This document shows positions 10,002-26,757 of a stretch of DNA of 60,667 nt, in pieces. A program made the translations under genes and the position numbers. The stretch is from a virus. The notes under the pieces were generated by a model. The model saw only the letters and a list, made by a program, of their open reading frames with translations. It had not been told where the DNA came from and made no database searches. The DNA lies in the IMG/VR virus record IMGVR_UViG_3300023235_000002, one strand, 5' to 3'. The stretch's first letter is position 1; each line of letters opens with the position of its first letter.

Positions 10002-11177
10002 TTATTTAACTTTAAACAATTGTTCTTTCAGTACTTTCCCTACTCTTACTTTTCTTATTTCAAACTTATCTCCTAATTGTATACTGGGATCATTTCTTCG
10101 TTCTCTAATTTCGTCTAACTCTTCTTGTGTCTCTATAGTTACCAAGTTCCTACCAAAACTACCCCCTGACTTACTAGAGCCATTTCTTTTTGACCCAGTT
10201 AATATTGCTCTTTGATCAGGAGTCAGAGCTTCCTGTATGTTCTCAGTCTCAAATTGTAGTAATTTCTGGTCAAGACTTTTACCATTGTTATCTCTACCTC
10301 CAGCACCGAAGTTAGCTATATGTGAATTAGTTAGTTTTGCTTTTGCAATGTTATTTTCATTTGCTTTTTTAAATAGGCTAACTAGAACAAGAGCTGATTC
10401 TCTTGTCATCTCTTGGCTTAGGTTTAAATCTTGAATAAACTTTAATTCTTTCTCAGATAAAGCACCTTTTAATTGACCTAGATCAGATAAAATCTTTTGC
10501 CCTGATAATTTTCTTAACACTTCCACTCCTGTTATATCGGTTACACCAGTGCTACCGAAACCTATTCCTTCAAAAACTCTTTGCGCTCCTTCAGAAAGAT
10601 TAGCAAATGCACCAAAAGTCATCTTTGGATTTTCTAAAACTGCAGATATAATTTCTAACGTCTGTTCATTTTTAGCTGCCTTAGAGCCTGCTTCTTGAGC
10701 ACCAAGAATTTTTGTAGCTAGTCCTTTCGCCAAGTCTTTTTCTAGTGTTGATTCAAATAATTTTTGTTTTTCAATGTTTTTCACATCACCTGTAGTTAAA
10801 TCTTTTTTCCAAGTTCCTTGAGGTAATCCTTCACCTACTCTTTGCTTTTCTGTTAGTACAACGAACTTACTGCCGTCTTTTGGTTTGTTGACTTGATCAA
10901 TCGCTGCGATAGTCTTTTTAGCTTCTCCTAGTCCACCTAATCCTTGACCAAATGCTCTTGAAAAACTAGACATTTGAGATTCTCCTGGCATGGTTCGAGC
11001 TCCTGTTAAAGCTTTAACAAAGGGGGCTAAAGTAATTGCAGTTCGCTCTCCTTTGGATAAACCACCTTGATTAAATTTTTGTATGTTAGCTAATCCGCCT
11101 TGATTAAATTTATTTTTTGACTTTTGCTCAGTTAGGTACTTAGCTTTAAATAAAGGTCTTAGTAAAATATCATCCAT
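10002..11177 (-). CDS. Internal virion protein candidate carrying a duplicated KFNQGGL motif
   Basis: 391 aa. N-terminal KNKFNQGGLANIQKFNQGGLSK, shared with 12625..13896. Confidence 0.4.
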   Translation of the reverse strand: MDDILLRPLFKAKYLTEQKSKNKFNQGGLANIQKFNQGGLSKGERTAITLAPFVKALTGARTMPGESQMSSFSRAFGQGLGGLGEAKKTIAAIDQVNKPKDGSKFVVLTEKQRVGEGLPQGTWKKDLTTGDVKNIEKQKLFESTLEKDLAKGLATKILGAQEAGSKAAKNEQTLEIISAVLENPKMTFGAFANLSEGAQRVFEGIGFGSTGVTDITGVEVLRKLSGQKILSDLGQLKGALSEKELKFIQDLNLSQEMTRESALVLVSLFKKANENNIAKAKLTNSHIANFGAGGRDNNGKSLDQKLLQFETENIQEALTPDQRAILTGSKRNGSSKSGGSFGRNLVTIETQEELDEIRERRNDPSIQLGDKFEIRKVRVGKVLKEQLFKVK

Positions 11178-11178
11178 G

Positions 11179-12240
11179 TTACGCTTTCCCTTGAACTCCT
11201 TGATAAGCAGCGAATGCTCCTAATCCAGTTCCTACCGATTGTGCTAAAGGACTACTAGCTGGTGCCGTAGCGGCAGTAATTCCAGACTGTGAAGTAGGAC
11301 CTGCTGCGTATTGGTTTTTTAAAAACTCTAATCTTTGATATGGCTCGTACTGTTGTTGTAGCTGAGACTGTCTTCCTGCATCTAATGTTGATTGAGCAAG
11401 TTGTCTTTGTAATCCGCCACTAGCCATTAATTGATTAATATCACCTTGTGCTTGTGCTTGTTGGGTAGTACCTAATTGACCTAATAATTGACCCCCTTGT
11501 ATTCCAGCCTGAGAAGCTACTTGCTGTTGATTTTGAGCAGCTTGTAATGCAGTACCAAAACCTTGCTGTTGAGATTGTCCTATTTGACCTAAAATTCTAT
11601 TTTGTAACTCTGCTCTTTGAACTCCTTCTCGTCCTCCTCCAAAAGCACCTGCGTTAACTGCTTGATCTGCGATCCCTTGTTGTTGCATTGCTCCTTGTCT
11701 TGTAATTTCGTCCGTTACATATTGTTGATAAGGATTAAAAAATTGAGATACATTAGGACCAGCTTGAGCTGCTTGTATTCCTTGTAGGGTAGAGGCAATA
11801 CCTTGTTGCGTGGTCGCTTGTCCTACTCCCGTTTGTCCAGCAGCGGTTACCCCTTGTTGCTCTAAAGCACTTAATGGTGCTACTTGTATATCAGGTAATC
11901 TTTCGGGTTGTTGGATAAGGTCTCTCGACATATCCATTAATTCTAATTTTCTTTCTTCAATGCCTGGTGCTTCTCGCACAAAAGAAGTAGTAGTAGAAGG
12001 TGCTCCACCTCCACCGCCTCCTCCTCCAAAGTATTGTTTTAATCCTGTTTCGTGGTTGACGGTTCCTGATCCACCAAACATTCTTAATATCTTAGATTCA
12101 AAACTATTGATATGTGCTAGTTCAGTATCTCCCTTAATACCTTTTCCAGATATATCTTTGTATAAATATTTAAATAACTCAACTTTTTCTTGAGTATTTA
12201 ATTTGTTTTTTATTTCTTGTATTAAATTTCTAGAGTTCAT
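11179..12240 (-). CDS. Gln/Gly-rich internal virion protein candidate (LAHIN-GGSG module, Gly8 run)
   Basis: 353 aa. GDTELAHINSFESKILRMFGGSGTVNHETGL, then GGGGGGGG, then a Q-rich region. Confidence 0.4.
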   Translation of the reverse strand: MNSRNLIQEIKNKLNTQEKVELFKYLYKDISGKGIKGDTELAHINSFESKILRMFGGSGTVNHETGLKQYFGGGGGGGGAPSTTTSFVREAPGIEERKLELMDMSRDLIQQPERLPDIQVAPLSALEQQGVTAAGQTGVGQATTQQGIASTLQGIQAAQAGPNVSQFFNPYQQYVTDEITRQGAMQQQGIADQAVNAGAFGGGREGVQRAELQNRILGQIGQSQQQGFGTALQAAQNQQQVASQAGIQGGQLLGQLGTTQQAQAQGDINQLMASGGLQRQLAQSTLDAGRQSQLQQQYEPYQRLEFLKNQYAAGPTSQSGITAATAPASSPLAQSVGTGLGAFAAYQGVQGKA

Positions 12241-13929: not shown

Positions 13930-14769
13930 TTATTTATCAGGGAGTATCAACTCATCGGCAAATCTTCCTGTATATTGGTGCTCTCCTACATGAGTAATAT
14001 AATCCATAATCCAAGCATGGCATTTACCCCCAATATTTTTCCACCGTTGACAGAAAGCAAAATCTTCACCTGTGTAAGAATGCTTAATTGGATCAAATTG
14101 TGTATCAAAGAAGTTCCAAAAATTAGGTAGTTTTTCATTTTTACCATTAATAACTTGATCTTGATCAATTCTCATTTCTGGATAAGCTTCTATCATTTTA
14201 AGTATAACTTCTCTTTTAATGAGCATAAATCCAGTAGGGGAATGCTCTACTTCAATAACTCCATCTTTTAATTTTATCTCTTCATTATTATTGACTTTCA
14301 TAGGATACCTATAAAAAGACTTGTTTCTTAAGTCCTTAGCCTCTTTAACCTTACCTTCTTTAATCATATGCATTCCTTTATCCCAATTAATATCTTTCAA
14401 AGGATAGGGGATAGAAATAACATCCTTATCATGAGCCACCATTCGTTCTGGAGATCCTTCATTAAAAGAAATATCCGAATCAATAAATAAAAGATGAGTA
14501 GCTTTACTCCCTAAAAAAGCACTGACACACATATTTCTACCTTGAGTTACCAAGGATGATTTCATTAACTGAAAAGATATTTTTACGTTTTTATTAAAAC
14601 AATAAGCCTGTAATCGTAATAAAGATTGAGCGTAATGAATAGAGCATTCACTATGTACAGGGGTGGCAACAAATAAAGAATATCCTGCTTCTTTTTTCTT
14701 TACCTTAGTTCCCTGATCCGTGGTCTCTGATTTCTCATCAAACCATATAGGTTCATGATTATTTTGCAT
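13930..14769 (-). CDS. Glycosyltransferase, GT-A-like with a DxD motif
   Basis: LFVATPVHS...RNMCVSAFLGSKATHLLFIDSDISF...DKDVISIPYP pattern. Confidence 0.55.
   Translation of the reverse strand: MQNNHEPIWFDEKSETTDQGTKVKKKEAGYSLFVATPVHSECSIHYAQSLLRLQAYCFNKNVKISFQLMKSSLVTQGRNMCVSAFLGSKATHLLFIDSDISFNEGSPERMVAHDKDVISIPYPLKDINWDKGMHMIKEGKVKEAKDLRNKSFYRYPMKVNNNEEIKLKDGVIEVEHSPTGFMLIKREVILKMIEAYPEMRIDQDQVINGKNEKLPNFWNFFDTQFDPIKHSYTGEDFAFCQRWKNIGGKCHAWIMDYITHVGEHQYTGRFADELILPDK
14712..14729 (-). repeat. Recurrent motif copy (minus strand CAGAGACCACGGATCAGG) inside the GT-A gene
   Basis: 18-nt exact identity with 40093..40110. Confidence 0.9.
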
Positions 14770-15685
14770 CTATAACTCCTGTTAAAAAATTAGTCCATTC
14801 ATGTTTTCTATTCTCCCATTTATAAAATTTATTATAAAAAGAAACTTGAGCATCTAATAAATTTTGCATTCCTTTTGTGTGTAACTGATCTGTGATACCT
14901 TCAATAGCATAAGCAAAACATTTAGATAGGTTCCTGTAGTTGGTATCATATTGAACGTACGTGGGCCACTCAGAACATGTTTCAAATAAAGCTCCGTAAT
15001 TAGTTACAATACCATGTAGCCCACTTCCCAACGCTTCTATCGCAGACATACAGGAAGTCTCTTCCCATATATTAGGATAAGCAAATATATGATACTCAGA
15101 TATTTTTTTCATAATATCTTCATTGGAAGCATATCCTATATAATTTACATTAGGTAATTTCTTTGCTTGATCATATAAAGGTTTATATACATCATCGTTT
15201 TTATCTTTAAACGCATCTCCGTAAATTTGTGTAGAGGAATATACATCTAATTCAATTAAAGGGTTTTTAATAAGTTGCATCGCTCCTAGTAACACACTTA
15301 ATCCTCTCCAAGGAGTAGAGGTGTAGATCAGTTTTAATTTTTGACCTTTTTGATATGCCGCTCTACCAGGAAAATGTTCTATAGCATTTTTAATCACCGC
15401 ACATTTATGAGGAGGTAGATGAAACATCATTCTAAATTTTTCAGCAGACCAATGACTGTTGAACACATACCAATCATACTTAGAATGATTGGAAGGGTCT
15501 TTCATCCAAGGTGCAATATTACCTTGATCATAGGAATTTTGTTCCCAAAGAATATTTATTTTAGTAGAAGATAAGGGTATTTTTTCAGGGACAGAAGTAG
15601 TGATCTGAACTTTGTCTAATAGATCATTATCTACATGCTTATACAATTGAGCATGTTGAAGCTCTGTTCCGCCTAAAGGCTTCAT
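14759..15685 (-). CDS. Glycosyltransferase, GT-B fold (group 1/GT4-like)
   Basis: C-terminal FAYPNIWEETSCMSAIEALGSGLHGIVTNYGALFE resembles the EX7E region of GT1-family enzymes. Confidence 0.6.
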   Translation of the reverse strand: MKPLGGTELQHAQLYKHVDNDLLDKVQITTSVPEKIPLSSTKINILWEQNSYDQGNIAPWMKDPSNHSKYDWYVFNSHWSAEKFRMMFHLPPHKCAVIKNAIEHFPGRAAYQKGQKLKLIYTSTPWRGLSVLLGAMQLIKNPLIELDVYSSTQIYGDAFKDKNDDVYKPLYDQAKKLPNVNYIGYASNEDIMKKISEYHIFAYPNIWEETSCMSAIEALGSGLHGIVTNYGALFETCSEWPTYVQYDTNYRNLSKCFAYAIEGITDQLHTKGMQNLLDAQVSFYNKFYKWENRKHEWTNFLTGVIDAK

Positions 15686-15688
15686 AAA

Positions 15689-15883
15689 TTAATTTGCTGC
15701 TGGTTTAGTAGTCAGTGAAGCAACAGTAATTTCTAGATCTTGTTGAAAATCTTCTACTGTGGTATCGGTAGCAGGATTGACTACATCAGCATCAAACTCA
15801 GCCTTGTCGGTATAAACAACACCTGTTCTTTTGTTTTTAACAATCTCTTTTGCTTGTGCGGGTATTTTTATTATTTCAGTCAT
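15689..15883 (-). CDS. Hypothetical protein
   Basis: 64-aa co-oriented ORF. Confidence 0.5.
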   Translation of the reverse strand: MTEIIKIPAQAKEIVKNKRTGVVYTDKAEFDADVVNPATDTTVEDFQQDLEITVASLTTKPAAN

Positions 15884-15921
15884 AGTAATTATATAATAGT
15901 TTTAATTTAATTTGTCTACCT

Positions 15922-16032
15922 TTATAAAGGTTTCCCTTGATTAGTCTTTCTTCTTTTTTGCCATTTAGCATGTCTTCCAGGTCTTTTTCTACGTTTACCT
16001 GCTATATGAACTTGGTTAATCTTGTTAGCCAT
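15922..16032 (-). CDS. Unannotated Arg/Lys-rich micro-ORF (36 aa, MANKINQVHIAGKRRKRPGRHAKWQKRRKTNQGKPL)
   Basis: Manual translation. Its ATG shares 1 nt with the stop of 16032..16376 (TAATG). Confidence 0.4.
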   Translation of the reverse strand: MANKINQVHIAGKRRKRPGRHAKWQKRRKTNQGKPL

Positions 16033-16376
16033 TATACATCTTCTCTGTTAATTTCTAATATGGATGCTGTAATATGCAATCTGTTTGCGTCTGCAGCAAC
16101 TACTTCCAATACTTCATTTTCTTGCATAATTAAAGGTTGAGTTATTAATTGCTCTGTTGCATTACCCGATACAACTTTACTTTTAAATAGAACAATTCCA
16201 CCCCCTGAAGCAGGAGCTCCTGGATATAAAGTGATTGTTATACTACTGCCATTATTAGTGTCATCACAAACTAAAATAGATTTTACAATAGCTCTAGAAT
16301 TAGAAGGAACAGTATACAAAGTAGTATCCGTAGCTGCCGTTAAATCAAGTTTTGCGTTTTTATATATATTAGCCAT
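16032..16376 (-). CDS. Hypothetical virion-module protein
   Basis: 114-aa co-oriented ORF. Confidence 0.55.
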   Translation of the reverse strand: MANIYKNAKLDLTAATDTTLYTVPSNSRAIVKSILVCDDTNNGSSITITLYPGAPASGGGIVLFKSKVVSGNATEQLITQPLIMQENEVLEVVAADANRLHITASILEINREDV

Positions 16377-16541
16377 TTAATTTACAAACCAAGTGTACCT
16401 TTCTACTTCTTGTCTTAAATCTTCTTGAAAAGAATTATTTAATTGATTCTTCATTGTTTCTAATGATTGAAGAACTTGTTGTTGATTATCCATACTGTAC
16501 TCTGGAGTAGGTTCTGGAATGTAATTAGTTATTTTAGCCAT
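16377..16541 (-). CDS. Unannotated small ORF (54 aa, MAKITNYIPEPTPEYSMDNQQQVLQSLETMKNQ...)
   Basis: Manual translation. TAATG overlap with the stop of 16541..18688. Its stop abuts the next ATG. Confidence 0.45.
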   Translation of the reverse strand: MAKITNYIPEPTPEYSMDNQQQVLQSLETMKNQLNNSFQEDLRQEVERYTWFVN

Positions 16542-18688
16542 TATCTTCTACCATCAGGTTGTATGTCTGCTCTAAAAGTACCATATCTCCAAGTTACTCC
16601 GCTAGATAAATTAGATATCTTCAAACTAGCAGATCTTCCTCTAGCACGTGTATCTATTTTCTGAGTACTTGATGTTACAGAAAAAGGTCCTAAAGAAGAA
16701 CTAACAGACGTATCAGAAGGATAGTCTTTTAATAAAATAGTAACCGTTGCAGTTCCATCTAATCTTTGAAAATCAGGTATAAATCTTCTTACTTTCGTAA
16801 AGTATTCTCCGTCACCTTCTAAATGAAGCATGAACTCTCCAGATTCTATAAAAGAAGTAATAGCAGTAGTTACTCCATCCTCTAATTGATCTATTCCCGT
16901 TTCGTGTTCCCAAAAAGTAGAGGAACCAGAAGTATTAGTTACTCCCTGTATAACTGGAAAAGTAGGTACTCCTGTTTCATAAAAAGAAGTAGCATAAGGT
17001 TTATCATATAAATGTGCGTCATAGTAAGTGGTACGAGATAAAGAACTGGTATACCAAACTTTATCTTGATAGTTATAAGTAACGCATCTATCTATTTCAG
17101 TAGCTGAACTAGAAGCATAAAACCAATGTAATTCATTAAACAAAGAATTGTGACTAGCGTAAGTTAATTTTCCAGCATCATAGTTAAAACCTAGGTCTCC
17201 TGGATTAGCGGTATTAAATACAAAATCTTCTACACTACAAGGAAGTTTAACAACGGTTCCGTTATATCCGTTAAAAGAACCTGAGTCGTCCATCCAGTAA
17301 ACAATACCATCTACAAACACAATGGACTTAGAACTCATTGCTCCACAGTTAGATCCTACTTTTCTAATACTAAAAGTGAAAGGAGCTCCTACATACTGCA
17401 TCGTATACGCAGCGGTATCGGTTAATACTAAAATGTAATCTTTTGCTCTTATGGCACCTACAATATGAGTTCCGTCATCTATCCTAAAAGTACCTGCTGT
17501 ATTAATAGAAGTTGGTTGGTAGTCATTAAAGTCTTCTTGGTCAGAAAATCTTATTAACATTGGATCAAAAGTTGAAGTATCTCCAATAGTTTCCTCTGTT
17601 CCTAAATGTATAAAGTGTCTATCTGTATCTGATACGATGGAAATAGCGGTTTTAGTTGGAGCACCTGTCATAATAGTTGCTCTAGTTTCTAAAGCATTGT
17701 TATTATTTTGTATAGGTTGCCATGTGAACGTTCTTCCATTTAATACAGTAGCAGTTAATATTTGACCAAAATTATCTAAACTCCAACTAGCTGGATCTAG
17801 TTGAACCGTAGAAGATAAGGAAGCTGAACCCCATGCAGTGTAATACTCTACCCCTGCTAAAGTAGAATGAGCGGATCGTGTTCCAGCTACTGCTCTCGTA
17901 ATTCCTGTAAGATCATTAGTTGAAATACCTGTATAGGAAATAAATTCTGCTCCAACTTTAATTACTCCCGATGTTGGAAACCCTGTTGTTGAGGTAAGTG
18001 TAATAGAAGTTCCAGATCCTCCAGTACCTGCAGTGTCATCTAATAAAGCACCATCTAAAGTAGTAGTAAGTCCAGATGCTCCTCCGTAAGCACCTGTTCC
18101 AAATCCAAAGCCGAATGTCTGTCCAATAGGACCTACTTTAACATATCTGTTTATAGTACATGCTCCTGACCCTGCAACAGTAACTCCCGCATTCGTTGCC
18201 ATCGTTATGGTAAATGTATTAATCGTTGCACTAGTTACTTCAAAAGTTTGATCAGTAAAATTCGCTGCAGTATACCCCGCTCCAACTGGAGGAGTTACGC
18301 TAGTAAAAGTAAAGTAGTCCCCTGCAATCATGTTGTGACCCACTAAGTTAATGGTGACCGTTGGTGAGGTATTGGTAGTATCAAACGTTCCTCCCGTTTG
18401 CGCTGTCTCTAAAGGAGTAATATCGTAATACGCTCCTCCATAATAAATGTATAATCCTCGTTGAGTACCAATTACTACATATCTATTGCCATCTAAATCC
18501 GACCACTGGTGCTGTGCTCTGGTAGCACCTGCTAAAGTATTGGTAGTAATTTTAGACCAACCGCCTACTTTTTCAGGGAAGCCATAACGAAAACGTACAA
18601 AATCACCGTCCACATACTGTCCTTCAGCTGCGGTATCGGTTATCTGTTTATTAAAGCCTGGTCTTATATTAATTAAATTTAAAGGCAT
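16541..18688 (-). CDS. Tail tubular protein B / nozzle-like tail protein
   Basis: 715 aa. The N-terminus (RPGFNKQ...GFPEKVGGW) and C-terminus (...WRYGTFRADIQPDGRR) resemble podovirus gp12-type proteins. Weak, from memory. Confidence 0.4.
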   Translation of the reverse strand: MPLNLINIRPGFNKQITDTAAEGQYVDGDFVRFRYGFPEKVGGWSKITTNTLAGATRAQHQWSDLDGNRYVVIGTQRGLYIYYGGAYYDITPLETAQTGGTFDTTNTSPTVTINLVGHNMIAGDYFTFTSVTPPVGAGYTAANFTDQTFEVTSATINTFTITMATNAGVTVAGSGACTINRYVKVGPIGQTFGFGFGTGAYGGASGLTTTLDGALLDDTAGTGGSGTSITLTSTTGFPTSGVIKVGAEFISYTGISTNDLTGITRAVAGTRSAHSTLAGVEYYTAWGSASLSSTVQLDPASWSLDNFGQILTATVLNGRTFTWQPIQNNNNALETRATIMTGAPTKTAISIVSDTDRHFIHLGTEETIGDTSTFDPMLIRFSDQEDFNDYQPTSINTAGTFRIDDGTHIVGAIRAKDYILVLTDTAAYTMQYVGAPFTFSIRKVGSNCGAMSSKSIVFVDGIVYWMDDSGSFNGYNGTVVKLPCSVEDFVFNTANPGDLGFNYDAGKLTYASHNSLFNELHWFYASSSATEIDRCVTYNYQDKVWYTSSLSRTTYYDAHLYDKPYATSFYETGVPTFPVIQGVTNTSGSSTFWEHETGIDQLEDGVTTAITSFIESGEFMLHLEGDGEYFTKVRRFIPDFQRLDGTATVTILLKDYPSDTSVSSSLGPFSVTSSTQKIDTRARGRSASLKISNLSSGVTWRYGTFRADIQPDGRR

Positions 18689-18732
18689 GGTTTATTATAC
18701 CTTACCTAACCTATATGTTAAATAGTCCCTTT

Positions 18733-20325
18733 TTAACTTTTAATTAGTAGTTTATTAAAATCTGCAAAGTAGACATATTTTAAACTTGAAGACCTAACTG
18801 TATTCATAATATCGTCTAAACTATCTACAATAGGGTATCCTGCTAAATTAAAAGAGGTGTTCATAAGAACAGGAATAGGAAACATTTTAAGTATTTTATA
18901 TAAATTATTATTATCGTTTCTATTAACTGTTTGTATCCTACATGTATTGTCTACATGAACTAACGAACTTATAGAATGTTGAGCTAAAGGTCTCGCTTGA
19001 GGAGCATGCATCATAAAGGGGGTGCTTTTTATCCCTGCCATATCAAAATAAGTATCTGCTTTTTCTTCTAGTATAGAACAAGCAAAGGGTCTAAAATGTT
19101 CTCTTTTTTTAATATCGTTCATTATATCTTTAGCATTCTTTAATGTAGGATCTAGTAATAAACTCCTGTTTCCTAAAGCTCTAGGTCCTGCTTCTGCTTT
19201 TCCCTGTATTAATCCTACAACATTACCTTGAGTTAATAACTCTACTACTTCGTTTAAACTTACCTCTTTTAAATATTCATTGTCTTTAAAGGAATAATCT
19301 AAACTATTAATTCTGTTACCGATGTAAATATTTTCTAAAGGATGTATTTTTTGTTTCGCTAAAACATTTATGGCATACACTATACCGATTGAATTACCTC
19401 CGTCTCCACATAAAGGATCAAACCACAAATTACATTCAGGGAATGCTTTATGTAATTTATAGTTGTTAACCACATTAAGTGCAGTGCCTCCTGTAAAAAC
19501 CATATTAGGGTGTTTGTATTTATGTACTAAATTTTTATATTTTTGCTCAAATAATTCTTGGCATGAAGATGCTTGATCTTTAGATTGTGTATCTAAACTT
19601 AATACTTCTTTTCCTGTAAATTCTTCTGGTATCGGCTCAGAGGTACCATACGATTGAAACCCCATAAATTTACCTTCCTCATTTTCAAAACCGTAATGTT
19701 GTGAAACTTTTGAATAAAAAAGACCTAAATCTAAATAATGACTTACATCAAAAACAGTTTCGTCTGTAATGGTAAGCGGTTGTTTAACGACATGTCCTTT
19801 GTTTGTATCAGGGTGATACGTGAGGTCGGGTGCATATTTTTCATTATGTATATCATGTGTATATAATTTTTTATAAATACATTTTGAATCTTCATAACTT
19901 AAATCGTATACAGAACAAGTCTCATGGGTAGATGCTTTATTTTCTAAAAACCAATCACTACCTCTATTATCTACTACAAATACTCTAGCACTTTTAAACT
20001 TAGAATCTACAAATGATTTAAAAGCATGAGTTAAATGATGAGAGGCATGCAAAGAATGAGGTTCATTTATTACTTTGATATTTAGATGTTTTAAATAACT
20101 TTTTAAAAATTGAAGTTCTTCTTTAACAAAATTATAAGAAGACAAAAAACAAAAATCTAATTCTTTATTAAAATAGTTCAAGGAGTTAAGTAAAGAGTTA
20201 AAAGGAAAAAAATTATAGTGTTTCTCTTGGATAACTTTTCTTTCCTCGTTGTAAAAAATAAGTTTTCCATTATCAAATAAAGAAACAGAAGGGTCGTGCC
20301 CTGTTTGTATACCTAATATTTTCAC
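18733..20325 (-). CDS. Carbamoyltransferase (NodU/CmcH/TobZ family)
   Basis: N-terminal MKILGIQTGHDPSVSLFDNGKLIFYNEERKVIQEKH. C-terminal CRIQTVNR...PVLMNTSFNLAGYPIVDS. Confidence 0.8.
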   Translation of the reverse strand: MKILGIQTGHDPSVSLFDNGKLIFYNEERKVIQEKHYNFFPFNSLLNSLNYFNKELDFCFLSSYNFVKEELQFLKSYLKHLNIKVINEPHSLHASHHLTHAFKSFVDSKFKSARVFVVDNRGSDWFLENKASTHETCSVYDLSYEDSKCIYKKLYTHDIHNEKYAPDLTYHPDTNKGHVVKQPLTITDETVFDVSHYLDLGLFYSKVSQHYGFENEEGKFMGFQSYGTSEPIPEEFTGKEVLSLDTQSKDQASSCQELFEQKYKNLVHKYKHPNMVFTGGTALNVVNNYKLHKAFPECNLWFDPLCGDGGNSIGIVYAINVLAKQKIHPLENIYIGNRINSLDYSFKDNEYLKEVSLNEVVELLTQGNVVGLIQGKAEAGPRALGNRSLLLDPTLKNAKDIMNDIKKREHFRPFACSILEEKADTYFDMAGIKSTPFMMHAPQARPLAQHSISSLVHVDNTCRIQTVNRNDNNNLYKILKMFPIPVLMNTSFNLAGYPIVDSLDDIMNTVRSSSLKYVYFADFNKLLIKS

Positions 20326-20332
20326 GTGACTA

Positions 20333-20851
20333 TTAATTGTACCAAAGAGGAATAGTGTATCTAAACCCTGATTTTATTATATCCACCGCATGTTCATTTT
20401 TATAACCACTATCAAACATAACAAAATCTAATGCTTTTGGTTTGTATCGTTCTCCATCTTTAAATACTAACTCTCCTCCTTCGTAGTCATCATTAAGATA
20501 CAAGATACTGGAGTAGTTCATTAAATCTTTTCTTCCATCAGAAACATCTTTTTTTTGGTCTATGTGAAAGCTCATATGATGACCCTCTTTCCACCTACAT
20601 AAAATAGGATCTTGAAAAGGATAACATTTTGTATTAAAAAAATGATCTACGAAAAAACAACCTTTTGAAGTTATATATTTTAATATTTCTTTTATTTGAG
20701 GATTGCTTATATCCATTATATGTAAACTTCTTTCTGCATGTCCAGGGGAAAAATCAGTGCACAATCTTTGATTCTTATCCCAGTATTTCATAAGTATCTC
20801 GGCTTCATAAGGTTTGATAAAGTTATGAATTTGTATTCTTACATCATCCAT
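20333..20851 (-). CDS. 2OG-Fe(II) oxygenase, prolyl 4-hydroxylase-like
   Basis: SFHIDQ (HxD), YLNDDYEGGELVF, distal NEHAV, RYTIPLW. Confidence 0.7.
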   Translation of the reverse strand: MDDVRIQIHNFIKPYEAEILMKYWDKNQRLCTDFSPGHAERSLHIMDISNPQIKEILKYITSKGCFFVDHFFNTKCYPFQDPILCRWKEGHHMSFHIDQKKDVSDGRKDLMNYSSILYLNDDYEGGELVFKDGERYKPKALDFVMFDSGYKNEHAVDIIKSGFRYTIPLWYN

Positions 20852-21437
20852 TTGGCATAACTTCTAAATTAAAAGAAAGAGAGACCCTAGGTTCATCACT
20901 CATACTTTGACTAACTGCATGTTTTAAATAAGAAGGAAATATAATTATATCATTTACTTTAGGTGTCACTATGTGAACAGAATGAAAATCGGAGCTACCT
21001 GATATATAAGAGCTATAGTGAGGGGACATTAAATTAACAGGTGAATTTTCATTATAAAATTCTAACTTCCCAGAATTAACAGGTGTCTTTAAATAAAAAA
21101 CTCCTGAAAAACTACTTCCTGCATGAGTATGAATGGTATTAGAAGAGTGTTGGTAATTTTCATTAATCCAACAATTACCTAATCTAATGTTTACAGGTTT
21201 TAATTGAGTGTCTTGAATAATAGACAAGTAGTTGGATAAATGGGTCACTACCAGTTGAGAAGTTTCTTCCAAAACTTTTTTATTTTTAATGTCGGGTGTT
21301 TGGAAACCTCCTACATTGCTTTTAACAACTCCCTTTTGTTGTTTGCATACCTCTAACTCTTCTAAGATAAGTTTATTATAAGTAGGATTGTAATTACTAG
21401 ACCTATAAATAGAAATAGTAAAAATATCTTTCTTCAT
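20844..21437 (-). CDS. 2OG-Fe(II) oxygenase (TIGR02466-like family)
   Basis: CWINENYQ..NTIHTHAGSSFSGVFYL...IIIFPSYLKHAV...RVSLSFNL. Confidence 0.65.
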   Translation of the reverse strand: MKKDIFTISIYRSSNYNPTYNKLILEELEVCKQQKGVVKSNVGGFQTPDIKNKKVLEETSQLVVTHLSNYLSIIQDTQLKPVNIRLGNCWINENYQHSSNTIHTHAGSSFSGVFYLKTPVNSGKLEFYNENSPVNLMSPHYSSYISGSSDFHSVHIVTPKVNDIIIFPSYLKHAVSQSMSDEPRVSLSFNLEVMPNG

Positions 21438-21439
21438 TT

Positions 21440-21661
21440 TTATTTTTCTTTGTAAAAATCAGATACTTTAGTAGGCTTGTTTCTCAAATCAGGTCTAAAG
21501 TTTATATTAAATTTTCCTAAAGCATGAGCAAAAATATTGGTAAAATTTTTAAATGCTTCAGCACTAAAGTGTATTCTTCCATAGCACAAAACAATAAATC
21601 TTTCTCTAAAGGAAAATTTTATGTCAGCGGATCCGTCTTTCTTAGATTGTATAATATTCAT
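21440..21661 (-). CDS. Hypothetical protein
   Basis: 73-aa co-oriented ORF. Confidence 0.5.
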   Translation of the reverse strand: MNIIQSKKDGSADIKFSFRERFIVLCYGRIHFSAEAFKNFTNIFAHALGKFNINFRPDLRNKPTKVSDFYKEK

Positions 21662-21685
21662 GAGAGATCGATACCATAATTAAAT

Positions 21686-22183
21686 TTAATAGTCAATTAT
21701 CCAACACACAACATTAGACAATGTATCAGAAGTATTCTCAAGGAAAGAATAATTTAGACAAGAATCATATATTATATATCGTCCTTTTTTTTCTGGTATT
21801 AGCTTTCCAAAATCATTAAAATAAACGCCATCAAAGTCTTGATTATCTAAAAATAATAAACCAATTAGTTGATTGATGTACTTATTATGTTTTTTCTTAA
21901 AAGGATAATCTTTATTAATTTGATGTACACTCACTGATTTAATAACTATACCGCCATTAACAATTTGTTGTGTATCGTTATTAATACTTGTTATAAATGT
22001 TTGAAAAATTTTATTGTTTTGAAAAAAATTATCTTTAGATGTTTTTACACCTGTATCGTTGACCCATTGATTTTTTTTAAAATTACAAATTTGTTCTTTT
22101 AATTCGTCACATAAACTAGTGTTAGGTAAATCATTAGTAAAAAGGGTAGTATTAATTTTTACTTCATTTTGAGCATAAAACAT
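21686..22183 (-). CDS. Degenerate 2OG-oxygenase-like paralog (metal-binding His residues not evident)
   Basis: LIGLLFLDNQDFDGVYF...GRYIIYDS mirrors the P4H-like spacing, but HxD and the distal His are absent. Confidence 0.3.
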   Translation of the reverse strand: MFYAQNEVKINTTLFTNDLPNTSLCDELKEQICNFKKNQWVNDTGVKTSKDNFFQNNKIFQTFITSINNDTQQIVNGGIVIKSVSVHQINKDYPFKKKHNKYINQLIGLLFLDNQDFDGVYFNDFGKLIPEKKGRYIIYDSCLNYSFLENTSDTLSNVVCWIIDY

Positions 22184-22184
22184 T

Positions 22185-22760
22185 TCATTTTTTTTTATTT
22201 CTTATTACAGCAGGAGCTCCTAAACAATAACGTTTGTCCAACATCCATTCTTTATTAGAACCCTCTTTATCTACGTAATGCATAAAAACTTGAGAGCACC
22301 AATCTCCTTTAAATTCTTCTCTCCAATGCTTGAGTTCACATCCTAAATAAACTACCGCATCCCCTGCCTCTAACTCACAAGGAGTTCCTTCTACAAAAAT
22401 AGGCCACTTAATAACATCTGACCCTAAATTAACTGTAACGCTAATTTCACATGATGGTCTGTCTTTATGTGGAGGAAGTTCCGCATATTGAGTGTACATC
22501 CTCCAGAGAGTATAAGTAGGAAGTAATTGTTTACCTGTTATTTCTTCCATATGTTTTTTCTTCATCATCATAGCAGTCTCCATTACAGGATCTCCATAAA
22601 AAGAAGTATCTAAAGTAGTTAAGTGTGTATTAACGATAGGGTCCATAGATTGTTCTAAAGAATGTTTTATTTTAGTATGCCCACATAACAATTCTGCTAC
22701 TTCTGGACTTAAAAAGTTTTTTATTACTTTGTATTTAAAATCTTTTCCTATAATGCCCAT
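22185..22760 (-). CDS. 2OG-Fe(II) oxygenase superfamily protein
   Basis: PPHKDRP (HxD) ... GDAVVYLGCELKHWRE (distal His). Confidence 0.6.
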   Translation of the reverse strand: MGIIGKDFKYKVIKNFLSPEVAELLCGHTKIKHSLEQSMDPIVNTHLTTLDTSFYGDPVMETAMMMKKKHMEEITGKQLLPTYTLWRMYTQYAELPPHKDRPSCEISVTVNLGSDVIKWPIFVEGTPCELEAGDAVVYLGCELKHWREEFKGDWCSQVFMHYVDKEGSNKEWMLDKRYCLGAPAVIRNKKK

Positions 22761-23341
22761 GATACTACCGAATACCTTGTTCCTTTTGTTACTGATTCTA
22801 CTGTGTGAGGGTACATAAAATTACTTGGCCAAATAATTAATTTATTTCTTTTTGTTTTTATATTAATTTTTTGTTCTTCTTTAGGTAGATGAAAACAAAG
22901 ATCTCCTCCTTCATAATCATCATTGACTAAAAAAATCATAGAATACGTTCTTGGTGTAGTTGTACCATGATCTACATGAGGTTTGTAAAAACCTGCATCT
23001 TCATATTTTAAAACTGAAATATTTTCTAAATGATATCCTTTCCAACTGATATCAAATCGGTTTAAGTAATCAGTTAAATGGTACTTAAATATAGCTATAA
23101 ATCTATTGCACCAATGAATATCTGTAAGTAACTTATTGTTTTGATGTGAGATATTATAAATCCATGTTCTTCTTATATTAAAATCTACCAGTCCTTGTTC
23201 CTCACTTGAATCTCCTGCAATGCCTGCTTGAGCAAATTTTCTAGAATCTAAAACTCTTCTAAAAACATCTAAAGATGTCTCTGGTAGTACATCATCATAG
23301 GCTACTATAAATTTTGCTATATCCATGTTTTCTTTTTCCAA
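22748..23341 (-). CDS. 2OG-Fe(II) oxygenase, prolyl 4-hydroxylase-like
   Basis: PHVDHG (HxD), FLVNDDYEGGDLCF, FMYPHTV, RYSVVSW. Confidence 0.7.
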   Translation of the reverse strand: MEKENMDIAKFIVAYDDVLPETSLDVFRRVLDSRKFAQAGIAGDSSEEQGLVDFNIRRTWIYNISHQNNKLLTDIHWCNRFIAIFKYHLTDYLNRFDISWKGYHLENISVLKYEDAGFYKPHVDHGTTTPRTYSMIFLVNDDYEGGDLCFHLPKEEQKINIKTKRNKLIIWPSNFMYPHTVESVTKGTRYSVVSWAL

Positions 23342-24039
23342 AACCCTGTTTTATAATTCATAAATAAACGAAATCCATAAACAATTTTATCTAACAACTG
23401 TTTTTTATCATTAATAGTTTCTATTTTCATTTTCCAAGATTCTCTTTTAAAAGGAATTACTTGTACATAATTTGTACCCTTTTTAACTAAACTTTTCAAG
23501 GTATCGTATTTATCTCCGTTTAAAATAAAAGGGAAATTTACTCTATTATGAAAGGTATCTGTATCCACGATTCCAGGCATAATAGAAAACCTATCATCGG
23601 TATTATTTAAGGGAGGAACAAATAAACAAGAATACCCTGGTGGCGTTTTTATAATCCAAGGATTTAATATTTTAAATATTGAGGAAGCTTTATTTTTATG
23701 TACTAAAGGAGAACTTTTACCTAGTTGAGTGTAAGGATGAACGTCTGTATTTGTACCTTTATTAAGATTAAAAGAATCGTATACTTCGTTACTAGTATTT
23801 GCAAAGGTAATATTTGCTTCTCCTGTTTTTTTAAAATAAATTTCAAAGTCTTGAGGAACCTCTAAAACATATCCAGAGGTTAAAGTGTCTAAAAAGGGAA
23901 GGCACCCTTTTATAGTTTTATTATCAAACGAATGATTAAGTTTTTTAAACCATTCGGGTATATTATACTTTATGGGTTTTGGGTAATGTTCTTTTAAATC
24001 TACGTATTCTTTAGTAGCTATAAACTCTATGTTATTCAT
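23317..24039 (-). CDS. Hypothetical protein, possibly cupin-like
   Basis: 240 aa. PEWFKKL...TIKGCLPFLD...NPWIIKTPPGYSCLFVPP...GIVDTD. Family not identified. Confidence 0.5.
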   Translation of the reverse strand: MNNIEFIATKEYVDLKEHYPKPIKYNIPEWFKKLNHSFDNKTIKGCLPFLDTLTSGYVLEVPQDFEIYFKKTGEANITFANTSNEVYDSFNLNKGTNTDVHPYTQLGKSSPLVHKNKASSIFKILNPWIIKTPPGYSCLFVPPLNNTDDRFSIMPGIVDTDTFHNRVNFPFILNGDKYDTLKSLVKKGTNYVQVIPFKRESWKMKIETINDKKQLLDKIVYGFRLFMNYKTGFWKKKTWI

Positions 24040-24079: not shown

Positions 24080-24538
24080 CTAAATCAGTTCTAATAAGCT
24101 ATAGTAAGGCTGAGACGAGTCCTCTAATAGTTGAGGTACTGTTTTTGCCAATGGATAGGTTTTTGAAGAAGCATCAATATTGGATATGTTGGTCTTAAAA
24201 GTGTTCCATAGATTAAAATCAACATGGTCTTTATTTTTTCTTAACCAAATATTTAAAGTATTAATCATTTGTTTTTTTTCTTCGTTTAAACCAGCTTCAT
24301 CAATGAAACTGAAAGTAGATGAAATATCATCGTATAGAACATTATCTGAATCATCATACCTTATATTTACATATAATAGTTTTTGAACATTATTAAATAC
24401 ATTGTCTGTTACAGTTATAACTTTGTATAAATCTTGGTTGATATGTAAATTTGATAAAGAATTATCGGATGCTGCTATACGAACTATAGTCCCTACAACG
24501 TTTGCACAATCTTTATTAAAAATAAAATGTTTAGCCAT
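24080..24538 (-). CDS. Hypothetical protein immediately downstream of the fibre gene (fibre assembly factor?)
   Basis: 152 aa. 1-nt stop/start overlap with the fibre gene. Confidence 0.5.
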   Translation of the reverse strand: MAKHFIFNKDCANVVGTIVRIAASDNSLSNLHINQDLYKVITVTDNVFNNVQKLLYVNIRYDDSDNVLYDDISSTFSFIDEAGLNEEKKQMINTLNIWLRKNKDHVDFNLWNTFKTNISNIDASSKTYPLAKTVPQLLEDSSQPYYSLLELI

Positions 24539-25749
24539 TAACTTTCTTCTCCAAATACAAGTAAATGACCATTACCACCTACAAGTCCTGGAACAATTTG
24601 TAGTCTACCATCAGCGGCATGACTTGAAAATGTATTTCCTACAAATCCTCCATTAAAACCTAAGGGTAAAGTATTTAGAGGTGCTGGACCAGATGAATTT
24701 CCTGGATTCCCACTACTACCAGTGCTATTCGGACTTGCTGCTCCGCCACCGTTGCCTCCGTTTACTGTTGCAAAGTTTGCAATAGAGGTTGCTCCGCCAG
24801 CTCCACCAGATCCTCCTGGAAAATTACCTAAATTACCACCAGCACCAATTGAATAAGGTTGAGAGAATGGAGCCGCAACTGATCCTGTAGCAAGCACTGT
24901 TAGACCTTCTCCTCCGCCGCCGCCTGTGTTACTAGGACCACCTCCGCCACTTCCTCCGCCACCTGAAGACATGATAGCTGTAAGACTATCTGTTCCAGCG
25001 GGTGGAGTAAATGTCCCTGAAGCAGGTCCATCTCCGATTAGTAAAGCAGCTACTCCAGCTCCTCCTGCTGCACCTGAAGATGCAGATGTAATTCTTCCTT
25101 GAGCATCTACAGTCAAAGCAGTAGCTGTGTAGTCACCTGCAGTTACTGCAGTGTTTGCTAATTTATCAGCGGTGACTGCATCGTCTGCAATTTTAGCTGT
25201 CGTGATTTGTAAATCAGAAACTTTCGCTGTCGTAATTTGATTGTCTGAAATTTTAGCTGTTGTAATTTGATTGTCTGAAATTTTAGCTGTTGTAATTGCG
25301 TTGTCTGCAATTTGTGCTGTTGCAATAGTTCCACCTAAAGTGTTTAATGCAATTTCATTTAAATTAGTTCCATCAGAATAAGCTGCTACAATAGCCGCTT
25401 CTCCTGCTGTAAAACCTGTACCAGAAACTGTTTTAATAGTTAAGTTAGTAACTCCTACTACAGCACTTAAATCAATAATATAAAATTTTTCTAAAGCGTC
25501 TGGGATAGTTACTGTAGAAGCTGATGTAAGAGTTCCAGTGAACTTTAAAATCATATTTCTTGCGTTGGATACGGCTCCATCCGTCAATGCAAGAGTAACT
25601 GTTCCTCCATCGCTTAAAGCAATTGATTCGTAACCAGCGGCTACTTGATTAATTAAATTTAAATTTGTATTTGTTTTATCTCCCCATGTACCAGCGTTTT
25701 CGCCAGTGACCATAAGCTCTAAACCGAGATCTGAATAACTTGATGCCAT
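24538..25749 (-). CDS. Tail fibre protein with 10-aa tandem repeats and a Gly/Pro/Ser-rich C-terminal half
   Basis: TAKISDNQIT x3-5 repeats. GGGGSGGGGPSNTGGGGGEG, GGSGGAGG, GSSGNPGNSSGPAP. Confidence 0.65.
   Translation of the reverse strand: MASSYSDLGLELMVTGENAGTWGDKTNTNLNLINQVAAGYESIALSDGGTVTLALTDGAVSNARNMILKFTGTLTSASTVTIPDALEKFYIIDLSAVVGVTNLTIKTVSGTGFTAGEAAIVAAYSDGTNLNEIALNTLGGTIATAQIADNAITTAKISDNQITTAKISDNQITTAKVSDLQITTAKIADDAVTADKLANTAVTAGDYTATALTVDAQGRITSASSGAAGGAGVAALLIGDGPASGTFTPPAGTDSLTAIMSSGGGGSGGGGPSNTGGGGGEGLTVLATGSVAAPFSQPYSIGAGGNLGNFPGGSGGAGGATSIANFATVNGGNGGGAASPNSTGSSGNPGNSSGPAPLNTLPLGFNGGFVGNTFSSHAADGRLQIVPGLVGGNGHLLVFGEES
25162..25320. repeat. Tandem 30-nt (10-codon) repeats, about 5 units, inside the fibre gene
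   Basis: Units start at 25162, 25192, 25222, 25252 and 25282. The 25222 and 25252 units are nearly identical. Confidence 0.85.
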
Positions 25750-25791: not shown

Positions 25792-26757
25792 TTAAGCTGC
25801 AAGATCAACTGGCGACCAGGTTACTTCTGTCCCTACGTCTACTTCAGCCCATGCGATTACATTAACCCCCCCTGTAGAAGCTGTCAATCCTACGCCTGTA
25901 GGAACCACAGTGGATCCTCCTATAACTACTACATTTCCAGGGGTTGAAAAAGTAGCGGAAATTCCAGATACATCGTATCCAGAAACTGGAACACTATCTC
26001 CAATAGCAAAAGTAGACTCTATGCCAGTAAGTGAAACGTTTGCATCTCCTGTTATCTCTTCTGAATTACCTAAAGTCATTTGAAGAGAAGTTCCTGTTAC
26101 AGGGACGTCTGTTTTTAACCCTGCTTCAGCGGCACCTATAGTAGTAGATAGCGCTATTCCTGTTAATTCAACTAACCCTGAACCTACGATAGAGACATCC
26201 TCTAAAGTAGTTTGAATTAAGAAGCTGTGTGCAATTTCGTTATCAGAAGTACCTGAGGTTCCTACGGGAGTAATGTCTGCAGATAATTCAATTCCTGATA
26301 CTGCTACCACCACATCGGTAAAGGCATCTTCATTACCTATAACTACTGATAAGGATATACCTTGTAGTTGAACAGAATAATTATCTCCCCATGCAAAACT
26401 TCCCCAAGTTTCTCTACCCCATCCTGCACCGATTAAATATTGATCATCGATAGTAACTCCAGTGATATTTGTAGACACAGGACTACCTGTTACAGGGACA
26501 CCAATTCCAATACCCTCATTACCTGTAACAATGTTAAACCCAATACCTGTTACAGATACATCAGCAGAAGCTCCTGCTACTACTCCTTGAAGAGTGAATG
26601 TTGCGGATAAAGTGGTAGGTTCAACATCTGCATTTGCTTCAGTGGTTACTGAAGATATAGATGTTTGTGCGACAATGGATGAGGCAACTACGGTTTCACC
26701 AGATAGGTCTCCCCATTCCGATGCCCCCCAAGTTTTATTGCCCCATCCAGTTGCCAT
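25792..26757 (-). CDS. Fibre-like / tail appendage protein with an internal duplication
   Basis: GWGNKTWGASEWGD at the N-terminus and GWGRETWGSFAWGD around aa 112. Repetitive V/T/G/S-rich sequence. Confidence 0.5.
   Translation of the reverse strand: MATGWGNKTWGASEWGDLSGETVVASSIVAQTSISSVTTEANADVEPTTLSATFTLQGVVAGASADVSVTGIGFNIVTGNEGIGIGVPVTGSPVSTNITGVTIDDQYLIGAGWGRETWGSFAWGDNYSVQLQGISLSVVIGNEDAFTDVVVAVSGIELSADITPVGTSGTSDNEIAHSFLIQTTLEDVSIVGSGLVELTGIALSTTIGAAEAGLKTDVPVTGTSLQMTLGNSEEITGDANVSLTGIESTFAIGDSVPVSGYDVSGISATFSTPGNVVVIGGSTVVPTGVGLTASTGGVNVIAWAEVDVGTEVTWSPVDLAA

Follow-up and report, generated by a model that had tools for sequence, protein, structure and literature searches.

Gene content of the tail-module enzyme island

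The IMG/VR virus record IMGVR_UViG_3300023235_000002 comprises 60,667 nucleotides of DNA (about 60.7 kb; hereafter the window, meaning the whole stretch analysed) and carries, at positions 13,930 to 24,039, an island of nine enzyme-like open reading frames (ORFs) that encode predicted 2-oxoglutarate (2OG)-Fe(II) oxygenases, a DUF6065-like protein, an O-carbamoyltransferase and two glycosyltransferases (GTs). Judged by its genes, the window is the genome of an HTVC023P-type pelagiphage, a podovirus, as its nozzle, adaptor, helicase and GT orthologs and the remaining gene content all fit this type. HTVC023P-type phages are very abundant marine viruses infecting SAR11 bacteria and make up the most abundant known pelagiphage lineage of the ocean. 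The genome itself is absent from the phage collection searched, since a near-identity DNA search with the island against 50,697 phage records returned only a single match of 112 nt.

All but one of the long ORFs in the window lie on the minus strand. A first-pass annotation, made from the DNA letters alone, had described nine co-directional, tightly packed or overlapping enzyme-like ORFs between fibre and internal-virion-protein genes, and all nine are indeed present on the minus strand with the boundaries it gave (Table 1). It had counted three small ORFs interrupting the run, where there are in fact four, three of them downstream of the nozzle gene and one among the oxygenase genes. The proposed structural frame of fibres, nozzle and ejection proteins is borne out by the nozzle profile and by matches to tail-fibre and DNA-ejection PHROGs. 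The nozzle ORF shares 57% sequence identity with HTVC023P gp72 and 49% with HTVC027P gp75, and its profile matches the solved phage nozzle proteins 8zkk, 8zkm and 9nwi_Y. The three small post-nozzle ORFs belong to families with 38, 60 and 66 ORFs in related loci, where their order is kept; one of them, 16032-16376, matches phrog_1276. The island genes are genuine, mostly intact enzymes within the tail and ejection gene block.

Table 1 Features of the island, its structural frame and other genes of the window.
Feature	Position	Strand	Evidence or remark
DUF6065-like protein, first gene of cassette	23317..24039	-	phrog_7084; weak dUTPase-barrel likeness
P4H/PKHD-type 2OG-Fe(II) oxygenase, paralog b, centre of three-gene cassette	22748..23341	-	PF13640 2e-17
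PHD/P4H-like 2OG oxygenase, phage-specific family (FeCh)	22185..22760	-	phrog_2954 at 4.7e-46
Degenerate TIGR02466-like oxygenase paralog	21686..22183	-	hhalign E 4.6e-5 to TIGR02466-like profile
Small ORF, 73 aa, inside oxygenase run	21440..21661	-	
TIGR02466/PF13759 2OG-oxygenase-like protein	20844..21437	-	above both curated cut-offs
P4H/PKHD-type 2OG-Fe(II) oxygenase, paralog a	20333..20851	-	PF13640 2e-12
NodU/CmcH/TobZ-family O-carbamoyltransferase, mobile accessory cassette	18733..20325	-	both Pfam domains
GT-B (GT4-like) glycosyltransferase, first gene of pair	14759..15685	-	Glycos_transf_1 above cut-off
GT-A-like (DxD) glycosyltransferase, second gene of pair	13930..14769	-	motif and phrog_1574
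Tail nozzle	16541..18688	-	715 aa; phrog_3287; anchor of all locus comparisons
Small post-nozzle ORFs, conserved, non-enzymatic, tail module	15689-15883, 16032-16376, 16377-16541	-	
Tail fibre	24538..25749	-	tail-fibre PHROGs; conserved N-terminal anchor, variable Gly-rich C-terminal domain
Second fibre-like protein, upstream of island	25792..26757	-	synteny with fibre-region ORFs of relatives
Small ORF, 152 aa, directly after fibre gene, one base shared	24080..24538	-	
SU10-type adaptor	27242-27901	-	family match
DNA-ejection protein	11179-12240	-	matches DNA-ejection PHROG
Family-A DNA polymerase, AEP primase, SNF2 helicase, large terminase, N6/N4 DNA methylase			elsewhere in window
FkbM methyltransferase and AdoMet decarboxylase			outside island

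Oxygenases and the DUF6065-like protein

Two of the island enzymes, paralogs a (20333-20851) and b (22748-23341), are oxygenases of the prolyl 4-hydroxylase (P4H) type and resemble YbiX/PiuC PKHD hydroxylases. With 48.3 and 64.3 bits, respectively, both exceed the PF13640 (2OG-FeII_Oxy_3) cut-off of 27, and both retain the iron triad and the basic residue (H96-x-D98...H154 in paralog a; H122-V-D124...H179...R189 in paralog b); in the family alignment, the H, D/E, distal H and R/K positions are each occupied in 63/63 relatives. Paralog b overlaps the genes on both sides. The ORF at 20844-21437 scores above both curated cut-offs of its family (TIGR02466, 87.1 bits vs 62.5; PF13759, 79.9 bits vs 27) and keeps its metal ligands, the H-x-H...H motif being invariant in 18 relatives. 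A degenerate paralog of this type, 21686-22183, gave no Pfam or PHROG match and was linked to the family by profile alignment (Table 1). Two of its three metal ligands are substituted, with Lys in place of the second His and Tyr in place of the distal one, and it is probably inactive. All four of these assignments agree with those of the first-pass annotation. The 73-residue product of the small ORF inside the oxygenase run has no family match, and its own family counts 11 members, with homologs in the same hotspot of relatives. Taken as a group, the small single-domain oxygenases of the island look like protein hydroxylases of the Pro/Lys/Asp type.

The remaining oxygenase, 22185-22760, belongs to a family here termed FeCh, which has been described under another name. 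The label "ferrochelatase" is carried by phrog_2954, phrog_3531 and the GenBank entry for HTVC023P gp67 (10295-10915 in locus L001); the same family is called "ferrochelatase" and treated as a "partner AMG" (auxiliary metabolic gene) with an iron/heme rationale by Du et al. 2022 (PMC9599517), and appears as "Hyp. with ferrochelatase domain" in Sullivan et al. 2010 (PMC3037559). The ORF has no Pfam match of any kind at E ≤0.1, and no ferrochelatase is found among the top 50 structural matches of its AlphaFold2 model (pLDDT 90.2). The model has 512 structural matches in the PDB at E ≤1e-3, the best Foldseek matches being the PPHD-EF-Tu complex (4iw3) and PHD2 (E ~3e-7, TM ~0.6 at 12-16% identity), with Dictyostelium PHD, Ofd2, ALKBH6 and ALKBH8 among the others. 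Residues H98-x-D100, R101, H145 and R147 are invariant in the family, in line with the HKD...H oxygenase motif recognized in the first reading of the DNA. On the evidence of the modelled fold, the family is a 2OG oxygenase family, and the ferrochelatase label, which has spread through PHROGs, GenBank and papers, is wrong. FeCh-type genes are always accompanied by a P4H-type gene in the same locus (27/27) and, in 36 of 43 occurrences, have an oxygenase gene directly before them.

The DUF6065-like ORF (23317-24039) had been regarded as cupin-like, an assignment that its AlphaFold2 model (pLDDT 81.8) does not sustain: no cupin is matched, only dUTPase-type barrels (E ~2e-3, TMq 0.3-0.4) and uncharacterised phage proteins. 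Its similarity to DUF6065 (PF19541) is sub-threshold at 19.1 bits (cut-off 26.6), as are the matches of 20 of its 36 homologs, and a Variovorax homolog of about 34% identity passes the cut-off with 27.0 bits. Searching PDB sequences with the family profile yielded nothing significant. Residues ~155-163 form a nearly invariant PGIVDTDTF stretch, which we take to resemble dUTPase motif III (G-x-I-D-x-x-Y); together with the weak barrel matches, this stretch hints at nucleotide binding. In the phage loci, the gene is always the first of a trio with both oxygenases (9/9). Bacterial DUF6065 homologs (L105, L107, L113, L116, L118, L122 and L129; from Devosia, Variovorax, Paracoccaceae, Salaquimonas, Rhodovulum and Rhizobiales) recurrently neighbour genes for an ECF sigma factor, a zf-HC2 anti-sigma factor and a subtilase S8 peptidase, and no oxygenase or GT gene is found nearby, so that these neighbourhoods offer no functional lead for the phage cassette. 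In homolog searches, the FeCh and DUF6065-like proteins matched only phage and marine metagenome proteins that lack annotation. One "long contig" with a DUF6065-like gene, considered as a possible cellular sequence (JGI Ga0610007_01147, loci L085/L086), proved to be an HTVC023P-type phage genome concatenated in two copies.

Glycosyltransferases and carbamoyltransferase

The first gene of the GT pair (14759-15685) encodes a GT-B enzyme, as originally annotated: it scores 32.7 bits for Glycos_transf_1 (cut-off 26.4), matches the glycosyltransferase family phrog_2170 at 4.6e-26 and shares 53-58% identity with HTVC023P gp77 and HTVC027P gp80. Weak NCBIfam similarities are to GT4 enzymes of lipopolysaccharide (LPS), lipoteichoic acid (LTA)-anchor and exopolysaccharide (EPS) synthesis, and a phmmer search against PDB sequences gave no solved close relative. 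For the second gene (13930-14769), the annotation as a DxD-containing GT-A enzyme is backed by its motif residues, with D97-S98-D99, E235-D236 and H260 invariant in 30 orthologs, but its family match is only sub-threshold (Anp1/GT62, 20.4 bits vs a cut-off of 28.8; the same match is seen in 24 of the 30 orthologs). The protein is 47-54% identical to HTVC023P gp78 and HTVC027P gp81, and its profile found nothing significant among PDB sequences. More remote homologs, at 33-35% identity to the GT-A-like protein, are found in L089 (MW202753.1), next to RusA, exonuclease and methyltransferase genes, and in L090 (Caulobacter phage Cr30), next to gp46/47 and gp45; in both cases the gene stands alone, with no GT-B partner.

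The ORF at 18733-20325 was correctly recognized as a carbamoyltransferase, with both of its Pfam domains well over their cut-offs (Carbam_trans_C, 5e-50, 169.7 bits vs 27; Carbam_trans_N, 2e-15, 57.5 bits vs 24) and matches to the solved O-carbamoyltransferases 7xb6, NovN, GdmN and TobZ. The catalytic positions are invariant among the 8 phage homologs, namely H96-H97-x-x-H100, D119 and D308 and, in the GPRALGNRS motif, G380, R382, L384, G385, N386, R387 and S388; we take the H-x-x-x-H/Asp/Asp set to be the Kae1-like metal site and GPRALGNRS to be the YrdC-like motif, assuming the residue roles of the TobZ literature. As the score for the NodU equivalog NF041651 is 138 bits (cut-off 1000), the enzyme is a member of the NodU family and not a NodU ortholog. 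Its phage homologs are mostly cyanomyophage genes. In several relatives the gene is split into two or three ORFs (L023, L047, L061, L064); L064 contains one split and one intact copy, and cyanomyophage records likewise annotate two coding sequences. The split may represent either a two-subunit form or decay.

Two units with independent inheritance

To place the island in its lineage, 84 loci were compared: 80 nozzle-anchored IMG/VR loci, HTVC023P, HTVC027P, and two loci found via the carbamoyltransferase. Among these, 44 were complete upstream (fibre to nozzle) and 31 downstream (nozzle to ejection genes) and thus informative for the respective interval. HTVC023P and HTVC027P share the layout around the nozzle gene, and the arrangement of an enzyme island within the tail block is conserved in relatives. 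Besides the GT pair, HTVC023P has four genes of the oxygenase families and HTVC027P an inverted oxygenase cassette of three genes. The first-pass annotation had suggested looking for the same gene set in the same position; the GT pair has a fixed site, the oxygenase content of the fibre-nozzle interval varies, and the carbamoyltransferase also changes position.

Both GT genes were present in 26 of the 31 downstream-complete loci and never one alone. In these 26 loci the pair follows the nozzle gene with its small ORFs and precedes the ejection-protein genes, and in 30/30 loci examined the GT-A-like gene overlaps the end of the GT-B gene, by 14-65 nt. Pairwise identities of the two GTs co-vary (rho 0.52), and moderately also with those of the nozzle (rho 0.28-0.45). 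The most divergent relatives (L073, L076, L078, L079 and L082) lack the pair, as does phage 023Pt_psg01. The fibre-nozzle interval, on the other hand, is a hotspot of variable content, with 1-6 oxygenase genes in 36/44 informative loci and none in the other 8; in 9 loci the hotspot enzymes are encoded on the opposite strand, as in HTVC027P. Loci such as L020, L034 and L048 have the GT pair without any fibre-nozzle oxygenase, and L076, L078, L082 and 023Pt_psg01 have oxygenases without the GT pair.

Of the 80 nozzle-anchored loci, just 9 contain the carbamoyltransferase gene, and HTVC023P and HTVC027P lack it. It may lie upstream of the nozzle gene, be inverted, stand downstream of the nozzle with the small ORFs on one side and the GT pair on the other, or be located by replication genes. 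In L004, a 49%-identical homolog (4340-5893) sits outside the tail module, downstream of Pam3 gp33/gp34-like genes and an AEP primase gene, which indicates that the gene moves between hotspots within the lineage.

The GT pair, the oxygenases and the carbamoyltransferase are thus present or absent independently of each other in the 44 + 31 informative loci, which speaks against the single three-chemistry pathway that had been envisaged: with GTs lacking oxygenases, oxygenases lacking GTs, and a rare carbamoyltransferase, an obligate sequence of hydroxylation, glycosylation and carbamoylation is not supported. The region is very probably a lineage-typical accessory-enzyme zone of the late tail/ejection operon, made up of two independently inherited units. 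Further tailoring-type enzymes occur in the same late block of the L085/L086 relative, where a tryptophan halogenase gene lies upstream of those for the adaptor and a faint JmjC-like ORF separates the nozzle gene from the GT pair.

Late expression together with the structural genes, as had been anticipated, is documented for a relative rather than for this genome. In published RNA-seq data for HTVC027P (PMC12753301 Table S3), the oxygenases gp72-74 and the GT pair gp80 and gp81 are all classified as "Late", as are the structural genes, and the transcripts per million of the GT pair are comparable to those of the nozzle gene (PMC12753301). The GT pair of HTVC027P is orthologous to that of the window, and its oxygenase cassette consists of paralogs. 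A promoter and terminator scan of the island gave no enrichment over shuffles and no clear internal terminator. A near-consensus sigma-70-like site (TTAACA-16 nt-TATAAT; 18694-18721, minus strand) falls within the 44 nt that separate the carbamoyltransferase and nozzle genes, in a region whose overall count of promoter-like sites is not above that of shuffled controls.

Fibre type and the oxygenase cassette

The first 197 residues of the tail fibre (24538-25749) are 63% identical to HTVC023P gp69. Its C-terminal half is Gly/Pro/Ser-rich, as noted at first pass, with 28% Gly, 12% Ser and 7% Pro, and matches Gly_rich_2 below threshold. The DUF6065/oxygenase cassette and a Gly-rich fibre C-terminus occur together in 8/11 loci vs 1/33 (Fisher p = 8e-6, in a test that ignores kinship). 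A collagen-like substrate was also looked for, and no run of ≥4 Gly-X-Y triplets was found in any frame of the window; a collagen-type P4H system was rejected on this ground. The second fibre-like protein (25792-26757) has no family match. Neither has the 152-residue product of the ORF directly after the fibre gene (24080-24538), which has positional equivalents separating the DUF6065 gene from the fibre gene in relatives and is a candidate fibre-associated or chaperone protein.

Possible targets of the island enzymes

A late and possibly virion-directed role of the island enzymes is plausible. As an overall explanation, we favour two independent, late-acting units that decorate virion proteins, at a probability of roughly 0.4; virion proteins made at the same time are our preferred targets, though only tentatively so. 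The first unit is the translationally coupled GT-B/GT-A pair, whose fixed site is flanked by the small genes associated with the nozzle and by the ejection genes, and which could add a short glycan (two sugars, or a primer and its extension) to an acceptor present late in infection, conceivably a tail or ejection protein. The second is the fibre-to-nozzle interval, a hypervariable insertion site. Its core in the window is the overlapping cassette of the DUF6065-like, P4H-type and PHD-like proteins (23317-24039, 22748-23341 and 22185-22760), whose substrate would be the Gly/Pro/Ser-rich C-terminal domain of the fibre, and it also holds the additional oxygenase paralogs, one of them apparently dead, and the mobile O-carbamoyltransferase. 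The latter is perhaps best seen as an occasional add-on, most plausibly capping a sugar hydroxyl, on which the other enzymes would not depend. The outcome would be an optional surface decoration of the particle. That the FeCh model is closest to protein prolyl hydroxylases (PPHD, PHD2 and Dictyostelium PHD) was counted toward a protein target. A more elaborate version, in which a swappable post-translational "coat" combines fibre hydroxylation with the help of the DUF6065 partner, tail or ejection-protein glycosylation and occasional carbamoyl capping, and thereby tunes adsorption, stability or host range, seems unlikely.

Several observations weigh against virion decoration. Accessory genes such as morons and AMGs commonly insert in late operons, and position alone is weak evidence. 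A literature search for a characterised phage P4H/PHD substrate or for virion proteomics of the lineage found nothing usable. The 2OG-oxygenase fold also matches small-molecule enzymes (EctD, SnoN, EvdO1 and OkaE), the solved relatives of the carbamoyltransferase all act on small molecules or sugars and not on proteins, and in other phages the remote homologs of the GT-A-like protein are encoded within DNA replication/recombination modules. The association between fibre type and cassette may be mere linkage of adjacent genes. The cassette genes barely co-vary with the nozzle (rho 0.08-0.13), and this, like the inversion of the cassette in some relatives, is typical of mobile accessory genes, whose function may be unrelated to that of their neighbours. 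There are relatives that share the structural proteins but have no GT pair or no oxygenases, which would make any decoration dispensable. In HTVC027P, the inverted oxygenases are expressed about 10-fold lower (PMC12753301).

A somewhat improbable alternative is an action on the host envelope, the GT pair (with or without the carbamoyltransferase) altering the LPS, capsule or a glycolipid of SAR11 and so blocking superinfection or the adsorption of progeny to infected cells and debris. Such a role would suit the weak likeness of the GT-B enzyme to LPS, LTA-anchor and EPS enzymes, the sugar carbamoylation performed by NodU/TobZ-type enzymes, and the position of the island beside receptor-binding genes, the other half of the adsorption interaction; analogous islands of pelagimyophages have also been read as serving O-chain modification and avoidance of co-infection (PMC7029224), and a role of this kind has been suggested for the "host recognition cluster" of both pelagimyophages and cyanomyophages. 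Late expression, however, fits superinfection exclusion poorly, and the phages are strictly lytic according to the authors who isolated them. Family scans of the region revealed no flippase, polymerase, lipid-carrier or nucleotide-sugar genes, and it is not obvious what PHD/P4H-type oxygenases would contribute to making a glycan.

It is unlikely that the oxygenases instead hydroxylate host proteins such as EF-Tu, ribosomal or regulatory proteins, in the manner of PPHD and the ribosomal oxygenases of bacteria, thereby tuning late protein synthesis, or merely consume 2OG, with the GT pair being unrelated. The best structural match of the FeCh protein is the Pseudomonas putida prolyl hydroxylase with EF-Tu, PHD2 and Ofd2 are matched too, and the YbiX/PiuC likeness of the P4H-type paralogs points the same way, but with a TM of ~0.6 at 12-16% identity the substrate cannot be deduced. 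The same oxygenase families occur across cyanomyophages whatever their tail type, and their involvement in 2OG metabolism has been proposed (PMC3037559). The independent occurrence of oxygenases and GTs would likewise be expected. Up to 6 divergent paralogs per genome are, on the other hand, hard to reconcile with one conserved host target, and the cassette is tied to the fibre type.

Phages do harbour DNA hypermodification islands that pair TET/JBP dioxygenases with glycosyltransferases, and the window resembles these in having 2OG oxygenases and GTs in one phage. Modification of DNA or nucleotides before packaging, with an oxygenase hydroxylating a base in TET/JBP fashion, the GTs glycosylating it, the carbamoyltransferase capping the product and the DUF6065 protein binding a nucleotide, is nonetheless quite improbable. 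The dUTPase-barrel likeness of the DUF6065-like model, the ALKBH6 and ALKBH8 matches of the FeCh model, and the location of the GT-A-like homologs of a Manatee Spring phage and Caulobacter phage Cr30 among recombination/replication genes would agree with it, as would the only match of the FeCh profile to a PDB sequence, a Naegleria Tet-like dioxygenase, which is not significant (E 0.25). The oxygenases of the island are, however, of the PF13640, PF13759 and PHD-like types and lie in the tail module instead of a replication module; the best-matching folds are protein hydroxylases, and no island ORF matches Tet_JBP or a phage DNA glucosyltransferase family at E ≤0.1. No thymidylate synthase (TS)-like hydroxymethylase, aGPT-Pplase or C5-methyltransferase was found in the window ORFs scanned (the larger ORFs outside 28-37 kb), the only methylase being of the N6/N4 type, and no TS or aGPT-Pplase hypermodification gene is annotated in HTVC023P. 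The GT pair also occurs without neighbouring oxygenases. Clades V, VIII and IX of the HTVC023P type do carry thymidine hypermodification clusters, but the hypermodification genes of the lineage (TS, aGPT-Pplase and hydroxymethylcytosine glucosyltransferase) are located near the DNA polymerase gene and not in the tail module (PMC9599517).

A single obligate sequence on the fibre, in which hydroxylation is followed by O-glycosylation of the new hydroxyl and carbamoylation of the sugar, is very improbable, for although all three chemistries lie within 10 kb of the fibre genes here and are expressed late together in a relative, each of the three modules is acquired or lost on its own, the carbamoyltransferase gene is both rare and mobile, loci with only GTs or only oxygenases exist, and the window has no collagen-like repeats.

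Other genes of the window

An ORF for a SpeD-like S-adenosylmethionine decarboxylase (5965-6546, minus strand) lies between the SNF2 helicase gene and a PD-(D/E)XK nuclease gene; it has a Pfam match at 1.7e-16, is under the cut-off for TIGR03330 and represents a polyamine-related accessory gene, one of which is also listed for cyanomyophages. The FkbM-family methyltransferase gene (59052-59723, minus strand) is directly downstream of the DNA polymerase gene. Its product could be a sugar or natural-product O-methyltransferase functionally tied to the GT/carbamoyltransferase set, though it is encoded 40 kb away. A 165-residue protein encoded at 40666-41163 (minus strand), between the large terminase gene (41175-42656) and an ORF of 792 residues (37850-40228), has a sub-threshold N-terminal EF-hand match.

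Relation to known systems and significance

Viral glycosylation of virion proteins has precedents in the capsid and tail tube of mycobacteriophages and in the capsid glycans of chlorovirus PBCV-1, which also encodes a prolyl 4-hydroxylase. In these viruses, the virus GTs, and in PBCV-1 also a P4H, act on late virus proteins, which is the mechanism favoured here, with the difference that the modification in pelagiphages is a prediction. Hydroxylation of a phage virion protein has, to our knowledge, never been shown. Accessory genes between tail genes whose content varies among close relatives, sometimes in inverted orientation, are also reminiscent of the morons in lambdoid late operons. Morons, however, are expressed from the prophage and have their own promoter and terminator, whereas the phages considered here are lytic and the island scan showed no enrichment of promoters or terminators.

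The claim to novelty of the first-pass annotation, which knew of no described phage system with these three chemistries in a tail module, was too strong, as HTVC023P-type phages, cyanomyophages and pelagimyophages provide published precedents. Du et al. 2022 (PMC9599517) described co-located 2OG oxygenases, "ferrochelatases" and GTs of HTVC023P-type phages as "partner AMGs", with eight non-orthologous groups of 2OG-Fe(II) oxygenases, often close together and beside the "ferrochelatases", and three glycosyltransferases. The lineage and gene families are the same as those studied here, but the genes were read as metabolic AMGs with an iron/heme link, where we find the "ferrochelatase" to be a 2OG oxygenase. 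Their paper is silent on the fixed tail/ejection position, the obligate GT-B/GT-A pairing and the link to fibre type, and its main text does not mention the carbamoyltransferase. For cyanomyophages, Sullivan et al. 2010 (PMC3037559) listed multiple 2OG oxygenases, the "ferrochelatase-domain" protein, a carbamoyltransferase, a tryptophan halogenase, SpeD and PurM. Zaragoza-Solas et al. 2020 (PMC7029224) reported a "host recognition cluster" in pelagimyophages, with enzyme-rich hypervariable islands inside the structural region. The present island resembles this cluster and the hyperplastic regions as a hypervariable island in the structural region where tail-fibre genes are mixed with GTs and accessory enzymes. 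The pelagimyophage and cyanomyophage islands, in contrast, span 30-45 kb in T4-like myoviruses, whereas here two small units flank the nozzle gene of a 60-kb podovirus, and the GT families differ, with GT8 being dominant in pelagimyophages (PMC7029224).

The novelty of the island is therefore modest. New here are the recognition of the "ferrochelatase" as a 2OG oxygenase, a GT-B/GT-A pair that is obligate, overlapping and fixed in position within the tail module, the DUF6065-oxygenase-oxygenase cassette with its link to fibre type, and the mobility of the carbamoyltransferase within the lineage. "2OG oxygenase" should take the place of the widely copied "ferrochelatase" annotation and of the iron/heme account that was derived from it, and both the GT pair and the three-gene cassette are now defined units, testable in two cultured phages. 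As most HTVC023P-type phages carry these late enzymes, the modification, whatever its target, takes place on an enormous scale. With virion proteins as targets, phage virion glycosylation would extend to marine podoviruses and protein hydroxylation would be a new virion modification, which would bear on adsorption and host range; with host glycans or proteins as targets, the enzymes would serve a takeover function of ecological weight.

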